From a virus (taxonomy: Duplodnaviria; Caudoviricetes): a stretch of DNA of 64,000 bases. Positions 871-8,239 of the stretch are shown here, one piece after another. Positions within the stretch are counted from its first letter, which is position 1; each line of letters opens with the position of its first letter. Under the pieces are notes generated by a model. The model was not told the DNA's origin. It ran no database searches and worked only from the letters and a program-made list of their open reading frames with translations. The stretch lies in the IMG/VR virus record IMGVR_UViG_3300025679_000005; one strand, given 5' to 3'. A program made the position numbers and the translations under genes.

Positions 871-1289
871 AAAAACGTAAGCGTCGATTCTATCCGGGGA
901 TGCTCGTTCGCATTGCCAAGGACTGCCGCCCAGTCTCAGTATTGGAGCCCCTGAGCGGGCATCCCCTGTCTATACACCGTCCAGAAGGGGCTGCTACAGG
1001 GGCTGAAGCCGTTTACGAAGGGCGGTTCAATTCCAAGACCGGACGACGCTACAAGGGGCCTAGAGGCCTTGGAATGCCCAGACTACGCCTGGAGGATGGT
1101 TCGCACATTTGGGGGTATGAGTGCTACTGGCTGCCCCTGAAAGAAGCCCAGGCCGTCGAAGCCAGTTTGGGCATACACATACCCTCCAGAGAGGCGAAAG
1201 AGTGGGATCGCCTGGTCGACGACCTCCAACGTAGGACTCAGATAGGGGAAACTCCTGAGGCATCCCCTACGGCCACCCTTACGGAGTAG
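867..1289 (+). CDS. hypothetical phage protein containing a degenerate array-A repeat
   Basis: ORF track; coupled to upstream gene; repeat-like sequence at 933-959. Confidence 0.55.
   Translation: MKKRKRRFYPGMLVRIAKDCRPVSVLEPLSGHPLSIHRPEGAATGAEAVYEGRFNSKTGRRYKGPRGLGMPRLRLEDGSHIWGYECYWLPLKEAQAVEASLGIHIPSREAKEWDRLVDDLQRRTQIGETPEASPTATLTE
933..959 (-). repeat. solitary degenerate copy of array-A repeat
   Basis: gtctcagtattggagcccctgagcggg, 25/27 identical to the array-A repeat. Confidence 0.85.
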
Positions 1290-1533: not shown

Positions 1534-1862
1534 GTCTCAGTACTGGAACCCCTGAGCGGGTGTTGTTGGAAGGGCTATGGACCAAGTACGTGCTCACAAA
1601 GGTCTCGTCTCAGTACTGGAACCCCTGAGCGGGTGTTGTTGGGGGTTCGCGTGCGGTAAATCCCCTAATGTCCGAGAAGTCTCAGTACTGGAACCCCTGA
1701 GCGGGTGTTGTTGGCCCTGTTACGTCGAGCAGCTCCACCTCGTCGAACAGCAGTCTCAGTACTGGAACCCCTGAGCGGGTGTTGTTGGCAAGGACCGACA
1801 CGCAAACGAGATCGATTCCGTACCCAGTCTCAGTACTGGAACCCCTGAGCGGGTGTTGTTGG
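1534..1862 (-). CRISPR. CRISPR array A: 5 identical 36-nt repeats (CCAACAACACCCGCTCAGGGGTTCCAGTACTGAGAC on minus strand), 4 spacers of 36-38 nt
   Basis: Repeats start at 1534, 1607, 1679, 1753, 1827; orientation inferred from the 3' GAC end and co-orientation with the adjacent RuvC-like gene. Confidence 0.97.
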
Positions 1863-1865
1863 AGG

Positions 1866-2402
1866 TCATTGAGCGGCCTCATCACATCCAGTAGTTACAC
1901 CGGACTTTGCGAGCGCCTCGCCAGTCCGTCGACAAATCTCCTTCGAGGCTCCAAAATCCCGATCGTAAGTGCGCCCACAATTAGGACAAGCAAGGATCAG
2001 ACCGTCAAGCTTTCCAGTGGGTTTTATGCAATGGGGGCACACCTGCGACGTTTTGCGAGCGGATACCGCAAAAACCTTGGCACCCGACCGCTCGCAGATC
2101 TGTTTGAGCAGGTAGGGGGCAGAAACATCTCGGTTCTGACGTTTACGCCTAGAACTCTCCGAGGCCGTATCAAGAGCACGCATCTGTGTGCTCTTGAGGT
2201 CCTCTAGGCCGATAGCCACATACATGGCCGCCAGTTTTTTGGCGGCCTTACTGAGAATGTCCAAACGAATATTCTCAATCCGTCGGCGAGCCTTGGCGAT
2301 TTGTTTTTCGGTCAGGTGCTCGTAAGCCACCCAAGAGGCTTCCTCTGTAGTGAGTACTCCCAGTTCGGCCAGATGCCTTCGGTATTGATGCCGATTTCTC
2401 AC
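1866..2402 (-). CDS. 178-aa TnpB/Cas12f-like C-terminal fragment (bridge helix, RuvC-II, Zn finger, RuvC-III)
   Basis: RRRIENIRLDILSKAAKKL, IGLEDLK, TSQVCPHC, CPNCGRTYDRD; no RuvC-I, WED or REC region in frame. Confidence 0.8.
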   Translation of the reverse strand: MRNRHQYRRHLAELGVLTTEEASWVAYEHLTEKQIAKARRRIENIRLDILSKAAKKLAAMYVAIGLEDLKSTQMRALDTASESSRRKRQNRDVSAPYLLKQICERSGAKVFAVSARKTSQVCPHCIKPTGKLDGLILACPNCGRTYDRDFGASKEICRRTGEALAKSGVTTGCDEAAQ

Positions 2403-2423
2403 AGGAAGGTTGGCGTTTTTCTT

Positions 2424-2453
2424 GTCACAGTATTGGAACCCCTGAGCGGGTGT
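2424..2453 (-). repeat. solitary degenerate copy of array-A repeat 21 nt upstream of the RuvC-fragment start
   Basis: gtcacagtattggaacccctgagcgggtgt, 28/30 identical. Confidence 0.85.
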
Positions 2454-2498
2454 AGATCACATAATGTACGTTATCAAGCGTCCAGTCAACCCCATTGA

Positions 2499-2951
2499 TC
2501 ATGCCACGGCGCCACGTTTTTTATTGCGATTGCGCTCGGTCTTGCCAGTGACCTTGGTCACGGTCTTGCCGAAGTTGGCGTTCTTCTGCTCCTTCTCGAT
2601 GCGATTGTCGATGTCCGTGTCATGGCGCTGGGCCATGTCCGTGACGATCCACTCCTCGGCGTTCTCCAGGAGAGTGGAGATGATCAAGGCGAACGGGGTC
2701 TCCAGACCCACATGTACCATCGAGGTGCGGTCCTTGTTGGCCCGAATATGGGGAATGAACTTCTCGATCGGCGTCGGGGAGTTGCGGTCCGTGATGATGC
2801 GGCCGATGCGGAACGAGTACAGGACTTCGGAGCCGCGGGCGGGAGCCGTGCTGATTTCGACTGCGTAGCCCGACTTCTGCTCCTTACAGGTGTGGGTGAC
2901 ATTCCAGACTGGTTTGGCGTGGGTATTGGCTTGGTACGTGTTGTTGGTCAT
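2499..2951 (-). CDS. hypothetical protein with basic C-terminal tail
   Basis: ORF track; class-2 promoter-like motif upstream. Confidence 0.7.
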   Translation of the reverse strand: MTNNTYQANTHAKPVWNVTHTCKEQKSGYAVEISTAPARGSEVLYSFRIGRIITDRNSPTPIEKFIPHIRANKDRTSMVHVGLETPFALIISTLLENAEEWIVTDMAQRHDTDIDNRIEKEQKNANFGKTVTKVTGKTERNRNKKRGAVA

Positions 2952-3051
2952 GCATTCCTCTAACGGCTGGGTTTCGGATAGCTTTAGGGCTATGGGACAA
3001 ATACACCAAAGCGACGGTCCTTGCCCAGGTTATGTTGGTGTAGACCCTTAG

Positions 3052-5216: not shown

Positions 5217-5843
5217 GATTTCACTGGTAGCTTCAGTGAATAGAACCACATGTGCAAAAGTTTCTTGTGTGGTATTGTCGTACATGTGCAGTCCCAAATG
5301 GATTGCGGTTTTTGAGCAAACCGGGCAGGATACCAATGGCATGTCCTCGTAAGTGCTCCCGGGCTCTAGTTCTCGCAGGTCCATGCTCCGACCCTAGCAC
5401 ATTCCAATGAAGTATCGTATTCGAATCAGTTGAAAGACTTACGACACTACTTCACGTATAGACGCTACCTGAGCTTTCTGGGCTATCCCCGTCCGTTTTT
5501 ACGTTTACAGCCTCAGACAATCACATCAATGATAGAAAAGGGCTTCATGTCCAAGGACTGCAAGGGCTTGGGCTCGGCCGACATCTTCGAGATGACCTGC
5601 TACATGAGCCAGCAACTGGGCTGGGACAAGGTCTCTGCGGCTATTTTCCCCAAGGACAGCCCGTGCCAAATCGCCTAAGGTATCTCCAAACCGATCAGCG
5701 ACACCTCACCCGTAACTTCCTCGGGTTCGGATTCTTCCTAGCCGGCCTAAGTTTATGGGTCCCTCAGCTATCGGCAATGCTGGCCTACGTCGTCGGGCTA
5801 TGGGCTTACTTCTGGACGGGAAACCGCTCAGAAATGCAGCGCC

Positions 5844-7377: not shown

Positions 7378-8148
7378 GTCTCAGCGTACTGAGCAATCAA
7401 AAGGCTTCGCAGGCTGGGTCTGTCGCGAGCTGGACCAATACGGTGACGTGCTTGTCTCAGCGAACTGAGCAATCAAAAGGTTTCGCAGGATCCAGAGCTA
7501 CCAGGCGCTACAACGGAAGTGGCATCAGTCTCAGCGTACTGAGCAATCAAAAGGTTTCGCAGGAGGCGGTAGTCCTTGATGCTATCGTCGGCAAAGTCTC
7601 GTCTCAGCGTACTGAGCAATCAAAAGGTTTCGCAGGGTCGGGGCGGCGGGGGCAGATTCATCAGACCAAGTACGTCTCAGCGTACTGAGCAATCAAAAGG
7701 TTTCGCAGGAGTGGCCCATAGACCTGGTTCCCTTGGGCGTCCCTCTTGTCTCAGCGTACTGAGCAATCAAAAGGTTTCGCAGGGCCAGGGGCCGGCGGGC
7801 CGTTGTACTGGCCCGGACGAGTCTCAGCGTACTGAGCAATCAAAAGGTTTCGCAGGTTCCTTAGTGGGACTCTTAGAGGATCCTATAAGTAAGAGTCTCA
7901 GCGTACTGAGCAATCAAAAGGTTTCGCAGGGTCGGGTGTTGGAGTCGATGAGGTTGGCTTAGCGTACGTCTCAGCGTACTGAGCAATCAAAAGGTTTCGC
8001 AGGCCCCGACTCCACGGGATCATGTTGGGGATCGATCCTGTCTCAGCGTACTGAGCAATCAAAAGGTTTCGCAGGGCGTCGTGTTCATCGATCACAACTA
8101 CAGGGATCCCCTGTCTCAGCGTACTGAGCAATCAAAAGGTTTCGCAGG
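7378..8148 (-). CRISPR. CRISPR array B (CasPhi): 11 repeats of 36 nt (CCTGCGAAACCTTTTGATTGCTCAGTACGCTGAGAC on minus strand), 10 spacers of 36-40 nt
   Basis: Repeats start at 7378, 7454, 7528, 7601, 7674, 7748, 7821, 7895, 7968, 8040, 8113; the two variant repeats (7378, 7454) mark the trailer end. Confidence 0.99.
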
Positions 8149-8239
8149 TCGCACGTCAGAAACAGTGAATTTTCAAAGACCTACCGAATGCTTTGCGAGC
8201 GGTTCGGTAAATTAGAGATCAGCAGGGGGTATTACACCG

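Follow-up and report, generated by a model that had tools for sequence, protein, structure and literature searches.

What does an intact CRISPR array do behind a gene that encodes only the end of a type V effector? This question is raised by a 64,000-nt stretch of viral DNA (Caudoviricetes; IMG/VR record IMGVR_UViG_3300025679_000005), hereafter the window, in which five identical repeats (array 2) directly follow an open reading frame (ORF) of 178 codons, and which also carries an intact casPhi gene with an array of its own (array 1). A preliminary description, made from the sequence alone, had proposed either a decapitated type V effector whose array is now served by CasPhi or by a host effector, or one half of a split or accessory effector. 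We find that the locus consists of an effector gene of the Cas12m family, truncated but with its own array intact, in a huge peat phage carrying CasPhi. We consider it probable, at roughly three chances in four, that it is the remnant of a phage-borne Cas12m-type (type V-M) CRISPR module.

The ORF encodes the C-terminal third of a Cas12m effector

The ORF runs on the minus strand from a GTG start codon to a TGA stop codon; the database gene call starts further down, at the GTG at 2330, which is preceded by a GAGGA ribosome-binding site and leaves 154 residues. The encoded sequence matches the Pfam Cas12f1-like TNB family (PF07282, 1.4e-10), aligns with residues 243–379 of ISDra2 TnpB in a PDB search (6e-7) and covers positions 237–376 of the 403 of the TnpB family phrog_506. 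These matches and the residues that are kept, namely E67 of RuvC-II, the cysteines C122/C125 and C139/C142 of the TNB zinc ribbon, and D147/D149 of RuvC-III (in a DRD motif), bear out what had been read from the letters, including the lack of RuvC-I, WED and REC. Of the complete WED–REC–RuvC–TNB layout (~520–620 aa), only family residues ~343–354 to the end are encoded, and the RuvC active-site triad is incomplete: E67 and D147/D149 are there, the RuvC-I residue having gone with the deleted part.

An exhaustive HMMER search of 1.84 billion representative proteins returned, after the ORF itself, about twenty proteins of 501–578 aa, of which only the last ~165 residues match (35–43% identity, E values from 1e-31 to 1e-11). 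In the alignment, the ORF starts at the RNRHxYR motif of the family, ~55–60 residues past the point where full-length proteins have the RuvC-I LDWG motif (LDWGHRE). A profile built from these relatives matches, over almost its entire length, the solved Cas12m structures (23vw, 6.4e-33, over profile positions 60–513; Cas12m2, 8hio, 3.6e-28; 8pm4, 1.8e-22) and, far more weakly, those of TnpB, Cas12f and CasPhi. Their best PADLOC model is Cas12u1 (1.6e-23), the old name of Cas12m (PMC12607003), and the truncated protein, or stump, matches the same model at 1e-15. These comparisons of sequences and profiles identify the ORF as the C-terminal third of a Cas12m-family effector (type V-M, formerly V-U1) and not as a new half-effector. 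The original assignment to a TnpB/Cas12-like protein therefore stands as regards type V and has to be narrowed: the family profile and PADLOC point to Cas12m instead of a generic TnpB or Cas12f. Note that the full-length relatives form a compact Cas12m-type clade (518–578 aa, mostly with a canonical D-E-D triad), each member having its own array downstream, and that the source databases label these proteins only ‘hypothetical protein’ or ‘transposase’.

Modeled alone with AlphaFold2, the stump folds with a good predicted local distance difference test score (pLDDT 84) into a structure with a long hairpin of helices, two β-strands from the RuvC sheet, the zinc ribbon and, at the C terminus, a helix, and the best Foldseek matches of this model are Cas12f, TnpB and Cas12m2. 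The structure prediction called for by the preliminary description thus gives a confident model, but one with only two of the RuvC strands. With no RNase H fold and no WED/RuvC groove in which to hold a CRISPR RNA (crRNA) scaffold, the stump is predicted, from the Cas12m2 structure (PMC10442227), to be neither a nuclease nor a guide binder. This agrees with the idea of a decapitated type V effector that is no nuclease on its own, as does the fact that the relatives are full-length at the same position, in front of a homologous array.

Array 2 and the truncated gene have the layout of a type V-M locus

The sequence GTCTCAGTACTGGAACCCCTGAGCGGGTGTTGTTGG occurs in five exact 36-nt copies (plus-strand coordinates 1534, 1607, 1679, 1753 and 1827; expected number in shuffles, 0), and array 2 begins 3 nt past the stop codon of the ORF, so that the five identical repeats first reported next to the ORF are confirmed. 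We compared ten loci containing full-length members of the family, one of them on an IMG/VR contig (L004, 88 kb) and the rest on metagenome contigs of up to 109 kb. In all ten, an array lies 0–30 nt downstream of the gene, in the same sense; for this reason we take the minus strand as the crRNA sense of array 2. Read in this sense, the array-2 repeat is CCAACAACACCCG-CTCAG-GGGTTCCAGTA-CTGAG-AC, and the plan of the family repeat is CAACAGCCG, a 5-nt stem arm, the 11-nt loop GGCTTCxAATA, the complementary arm and AC. Among 18 distinct family repeats, the 5-bp stem is paired in 98.9% of cases and four of its five pairs vary on both sides, a covariation that none of 500 shuffles matched and that no slid register comes near. 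Each array-2 repeat scores 47.3 bits with the covariance model of the family repeat (model R1).

This architecture is that of the Cas12m2 crRNA scaffold, in which a G:A pair closes a Watson–Crick stem, a loop is present, the WED domain reads the terminal C(-1) and the whole sits in the WED/RuvC groove (PMC10442227). The locus thus displays the features of a type V-M locus: (i) an array directly 3′ of the gene; (ii) a scaffold made of the G·A pair, the stem, the loop and AC; (iii) no trans-activating crRNA (tracrRNA), the covariance model detecting no antisense (anti-repeat) copy of the array-2 repeat in the window. Altogether, the association of a homologous gene with a family-type repeat in ten loci indicates that the truncated gene and array 2 belong together. 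At one of these loci (L010), a regular-expression scan had suggested dispersed repeats; this was ruled out by the covariance model, which shows a long, regular but degenerate array there. The search of other genomes for the gene that accompanies this very repeat gave nothing to compare: the exact repeat core matched no record in the collections viral_contigs and metagenome_contigs, from which the window's own contig was not returned either.

The truncation junction coincides with a single repeat copy

When fifteen full-length members were aligned with the window by tblastn, only their C-terminal third was found, the alignments stopping at 2423–2435; ~350 N-terminal codons are gone from the phage gene. 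Upstream of the GTG, family homology (NLPVRNRH versus the consensus LxLPxRNRH) extends to ~2423, that is, right to the last base of a degenerate copy of the repeat (Table 1). In this copy, the 3′ 27 nt are conserved with two changes, one of which leaves the stem with a T·T mismatch, and the 9 nt on the 5′ side show no relation to the repeat; we call such copies scaffold-only. The in-frame stop codon noticed earlier just upstream of the ORF is the TGA inside this copy. A scaffold-only copy is also present 54 nt upstream of the start codon in the closest relative (protein P0002, locus L001), and the covariance model detects none upstream of the gene in eight other relatives' loci. The junction between repeat and ORF is no assembly artefact, since an independently assembled contig of the source run (5,228 nt) crosses it, covering 1833–3000 with zero differences; a Joint Genome Institute (JGI) assembly is identical over 11.3 kb, and L023, at first sight a second strain, is 100% identical over 11.3 kb.

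The IGIN string, which had been put forward as a possible relic of RuvC-I, is a chance string: it lies in another frame, over codons that are homologous to the family in their own frame (RNRHQYRRHL), and the LDWG of the relatives lies ~55–60 residues upstream, in the region deleted here.

Table 1. Features of the truncated Cas12m-type locus, of the CasPhi module and of related sequences (window coordinates unless a locus is named)
Feature	Position	Strand	Remarks
CRISPR array 2	1534..1862	-	five identical 36-nt repeats and four spacers of 36–38 nt; same transcription sense as the ORF
Truncated Cas12m-family gene	1866..2402	-	178 aa from GTG 2402, more likely 154 aa from GTG 2330
Open frame above GTG	2403..2459	-	18 codons to the in-frame TGA 2457–2459, within the degenerate repeat copy
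Scaffold-only repeat copy	2424..2459	-	42.5 bits with model R1; adjoins the truncated coding sequence
Sigma-70-like promoter candidate	2461..2489	-	TTGACT, 17 nt, CATTAT; consensus match only
Second scaffold-only copy	933..968	-	34.1 bits with model R1; intact stem; 565 nt past the distal end of the array
Near-full repeat copy	L022 67–102 (unit 67–135; window -9759 to -9691)		9.7 kb to the left of the window
CasPhi array (array 1)	7378..8148	-	11 repeats; crRNA-sense end G-CTCAG-TACG-CTGAG-AC
casPhi	8240..10570	-	776 aa; no other intact type V effector in the window; candidate for using array 2 in trans
Clade loci	L001 6001–7789; L004 4001–5800; L008, L009, L010, L011, L012 (gene from 3001 or 764, then array)		

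The simplest history that we infer from this arrangement is a single deletion event. The intact ancestor would have been laid out as in the relatives, with a 518–578-aa effector gene followed by its array and, as in L001, a scaffold-only copy upstream. A deletion or recombination of ~1.05 kb would then have removed the part encoding WED, REC and RuvC-I, thereby joining the upstream scaffold copy to codon ~343–354. The leftover would encode, if translated, a stump of 154–178 aa comprising two RuvC strands, the zinc ribbon and the flanking helices, and the array and the single scaffold copies would have been left without an effector of their own, their RNAs being either inert leftovers of a recent loss or loaded by another effector. 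It is probable that array 2 and the single copies are still transcribed, from the stump's strand. From the promoter candidate just upstream of the single repeat, an RNA would begin at this repeat and extend across the ORF and through the array; note that three such promoter-like sites occur in 2.3 kb, versus 0.9 expected.

Recent loss or maintenance

Four sets of observations weigh against a mere remnant of a Cas12m-type module. (i) The stump displays no visible decay: its frame is open for 196 codons; its leave-one-out hidden Markov model (HMM) score, 185.8 bits, ranks 18th of 22, with intact members ranging from 134 to 257; it keeps 23 of the 26 columns conserved at 90% or more; and its tree branch (1.41 versus a median of 0.65) is long without being an outlier, three intact members having comparable or longer paths, in a tree that does not fix its placement. 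A recent loss and selection on the stump would both be consistent with this. (ii) Scaffold-only copies are kept at three further places, at one of them together with a promoter-like box and a hairpin, which suggests, as far as conservation of sequence can tell, that something still binds the scaffold. (iii) The loop carries a G (CCAGTA) in all five array repeats and an A (CCAATA), the commoner state in the family, in the three single copies. A derived G common to all the array repeats and missing from the single copies implies that the array turned over after the single copies had split off. (iv) The part searched for the missing N-terminal region amounts to ~74 kb of a 464-kb genome (contig ERZ27294387 k141_731965, 464,302 bp), and an intact paralogue may lie elsewhere.

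The preliminary description had named full-length relatives combined with neutral decay of this copy as the signature of an ordinary pseudogene. The relatives are indeed full-length, but neither the leave-one-out HMM scores nor the tree detects neutral decay. No sister genome showing any divergence from the phage was found, and at 35–43% identity to the other relatives synonymous sites are saturated for a comparison of non-synonymous and synonymous substitution rates (dN/dS).

Could another effector use array 2?

That array 2 is used in trans by another effector is plausible in view of the stem and 3′ end that its repeat has in common with the CasPhi repeat, of at least three additional single copies and of a possible target of spacer 3. 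One candidate is CasPhi, structures of which appear among the distant matches of the PDB search. CasPhi would load array 2 and the single scaffold copies as guide or regulatory RNAs by reading the G·A pair, the 5-bp stem and the terminal AC while tolerating a longer loop, thus gaining a second guide pool after the loss of Cas12m. Both repeats, in the crRNA sense, read G-CTCAG-loop-CTGAG-AC. In the Cas12j3 structure, the contacts that hold the handle involve C(-1), U(-18) and also the G(-17):A(-2) pair (PMC8298400). This numbering agrees exactly with array 1, and array 2 retains C(-1), the G·A pair and the stem. CTCAG/CTGAG is found in no other stem variant of the family, the U-A second pair occurring in this phage only, and the chance of such a stem match is ~0.005–0.02 from the family pair frequencies. 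This figure was computed after the fact, the match having been noticed first, which counts against it. Furthermore, spacers have the same length in both arrays (36–38 nt) and single copies of both repeat families are spread through the genome. On the other hand, the family covariance model misses the CasPhi repeats, the two repeats have loops of different length (11 nt in array 2 versus 4 nt), a different base (C versus U) on the 5′ side of the closing G and no upstream sequence in common, and two of the three single copies have the T·T mismatch in the stem. We regard loading of array 2 by CasPhi as a tentative possibility. It is still more doubtful that such loading is the reason why the phage kept array 2 and spread scaffold-only copies after the loss of Cas12m, with the array-2 stem converging on that of CasPhi so that one nuclease would serve two guide classes with different handles.

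A possible target of array 2 also bears on this question. In the source run, a contig of 1,285 nt and 6.8-fold depth matches spacer 3 (window 1724–1753) over the 29 nt proximal to the protospacer adjacent motif (PAM) plus one more nucleotide, and then diverges. The adjoining TTC stands at the PAM position and suits the T-rich PAMs of type V effectors; for interference by DNA binding with a T-rich PAM, as in type V-M, this contig is the sole hint. This contig is possibly a co-occurring element targeted by spacer 3; a 30-nt contig overlap is also expected at a branch of the de Bruijn graph, which makes the match a lead only. The PAM-proximal 22 nt of spacers 3 and 4 have no match in viral_contigs, the whole of array 2 compared with GenBank phages yields only a 25-nt match (E 0.4), and no other genome with both repeat types was confirmed among the CasPhi relatives sought in viral_contigs.

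Two observations on array 1 may be added. The 11-nt sequence CTTTGCGAGCG occurs at 1905–1915, 8191–8201 and 8281–8291, the first two of these sites lying 43 nt away from the first repeats of array 2 and array 1, respectively, and the third in the 3′ end of casPhi. As a signal near array 2 it was rejected, since it encodes there the family-conserved EALAK and needs no further explanation; the two copies on the casPhi side are left unexplained. Besides, the array-1 spacer at 7564–7600 has a 15-nt exact match to window positions 14227–14241, ~0.2 such matches being expected by chance.

A second candidate is a trans-acting Cas12m-type effector, supplied by the host, a co-infecting element or another part of the 464-kb genome, that would use the orphan array and the single repeats; the phage would either redirect it against competitors or soak it up with RNA decoys, in the manner of RNA anti-CRISPRs. 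The array-2 repeat is a regular member of the Cas12m-type family, the scaffold part alone is conserved in the single copies, and a repeat copy found neither in the window nor in L022, the sequence to its left, stands at the end of a further contig with phage-like depth. Cas-less arrays and solitary repeat units are moreover said to be an established pattern in viruses, reportedly described by Faure (2019), Medvedeva (2019), Al-Shayeb (2020) and Camara-Wilpert (2023). The exact repeat core, however, occurs in no other record of the viral and metagenome collections, and no intact family member from a contig of such a length (464 kb) was present among the 8000 candidates of a word-based protein search that were scored with the family profile. 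Altogether, we consider the involvement of such an effector unlikely.

Finally, it is highly improbable that the 154–178-aa stump is itself a working protein, be it half of a split effector, an accessory subunit or a dominant-negative inhibitor that would have CasPhi or a Cas12m as its partner: its frame is intact, its ribosome-binding site plausible, its model confident and every family-conserved residue of the region kept, but it lacks the WED domain altogether and has only two of five RuvC strands, which is why we judge a function as a protein unlikely, and the confidence of the model derives from an alignment of full-length relatives, which is no proof that the stump is stable alone. The proposal of a split effector fails in addition for want of a second half. 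No partner supplying WED, REC and RuvC-I is found at the locus, and the matching N-terminal part was sought by tblastn without success in the 64-kb window and the 9.8 kb to its left, the latter containing just an ordinary TnpB of 386 aa. The 150-aa upstream gene (2499–2951) was considered for this role and rejected, as it has no Pfam or PHROG match and no related fold in the Atlas and is conserved in a phage record (see below) in which a Cas12m relative was looked for and not found. Nor were independent half-proteins encountered among the 1.8 billion representatives, where the three short matches checked (P0006, P0007 and P0018; 167, 200 and 264 aa) are all open to the contig end and have family sequence in the upstream frame. 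Since they reach the contig ends, we regard them as fragments and not as independent half-proteins.

Comparison with known systems

The locus resembles those of MmCas12m, TtCas12m2 and GsCas12m in the homology of the full-length relatives, in the position of the array directly 3′ of the gene and in the absence of an anti-repeat, and the scaffold of its 36-nt repeat resembles the Cas12m2 crRNA in its G·A-closed stem, its loop and its terminal AC. It differs from them in that only the last third of the gene is left in the phage. The intact relatives are also shorter (518–578 aa versus about 580–615) and have mostly a D-E-D triad, versus H-D-D in Cas12m2. A 610-aa protein has been called the first phage Cas12m in a 2026 preprint (10.64898/2026.09.14.751636). 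The compact clade identified here is relevant to small genome-targeting tools and to the question of how type V-M spreads into viruses.

As for TnpB of the IS200/IS605 elements, the RuvC-II, TNB and RuvC-III part of the ORF aligns with ISDra2 TnpB, but what follows the gene is a CRISPR array, with neither omega-RNA nor transposon end, and arrays accompany all of its nearest relatives. The likeness to the CasPhi (Cas12j) system lies in the handle: both have the closing G·A pair, the terminal AC and a 5-bp stem of the same sequence, whereas array 2 departs from the CasPhi handle by its 11-nt loop (versus 4 nt), by a C in place of U(-18) and by the lack of the GATTG upstream element. As proteins, CasPhi and the stump are only distantly alike, in RuvC and TNB (26% over 128 residues). 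With a CasPhi repeat and a Cas12m-type repeat of identical handle base in one genome, it can be asked whether a type V effector adopts the guides of another subtype; use of array 2 by CasPhi, if true, would amount to guide sharing between two type V subtypes within one virus.

Orphan viral arrays, mini-arrays, solitary repeat units and RNA anti-CRISPRs likewise consist of an array or single scaffold copies without a working cognate effector. Here, unlike in those cases, the stump of the cognate effector is still attached, and a CasPhi with the same handle base is co-resident. The attached stump shows how the orphan state arose. If the locus is indeed the remnant of a Cas12m-type module, this phage CRISPR module would have been caught just after the loss of its effector, which represents one route to orphan viral arrays.

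The single repeats may also be compared with the crRNA-like regulatory RNAs CreR and CreA (bioRxiv 10.1101/2023.03.03.530964), since a degenerate single repeat lies upstream of the effector gene here and in L001. The differences are that eight other relatives' loci have no upstream copy and that no pseudo-spacer target was found beyond a match at chance level: the pseudo-spacer that follows the 2424 copy (2423–2404) matches 12 of 14 positions at 2588–2569, in the 3′ part of the 150-aa gene, and ~0.4 such matches are expected by chance.

Single repeat copies and neighbourhood of the locus

The unit in L022 comprises a GGTGTATATGA box, a repeat of the array-2 type, CAGATCC and a 6-bp hairpin, and from this succession of elements it looks like a promoter-driven single short guide. 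Its repeat and the 2424 copy have in common the T·T stem-mismatch variant. The copy at 933–968 lies antisense in a plus-strand gene (900–1289, ATG at 900) within the first 23 codons, where it reads VSVLEPLSG in frame; viral SH3-like proteins are look-alikes of this gene. A codon-usage score did not separate real from spurious ORFs in the region 933–1533.

The 150-aa gene upstream of the junction has a counterpart with 65% identity in another huge phage, IMGVR_UViG_3300012988_000016, which shares the gene order of window positions 5385–2508 (L018 2450–5440) and then diverges at ~2500. In this 309-kb record, estimated to be 65% complete, no relative of Cas12m or CasPhi was found. This 3-kb block, the sole one shared with that phage, is flanked in the window by the Cas12m remnant and the CasPhi module, neither of which is seen in the record of the relative. 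An intact 386-aa TnpB gene (OrfB_IS605 and TNB domains) lies in L022 (8289–9449; window -1537 to -377) and adds to the RNA-guided systems nearby.

Lastly, the motif GATCCTACACC(G) occurs throughout the window, e.g. at 13126, 14402, 21976, 38186, 44090 and 56851, and also at 2455; the unconserved 5′ part of the 2424 copy (GATCTACACC) resembles it. CTACACC is present at 22 sites versus 8.6 expected, typically 8–10 nt from the start codon of a gene on the opposite strand.

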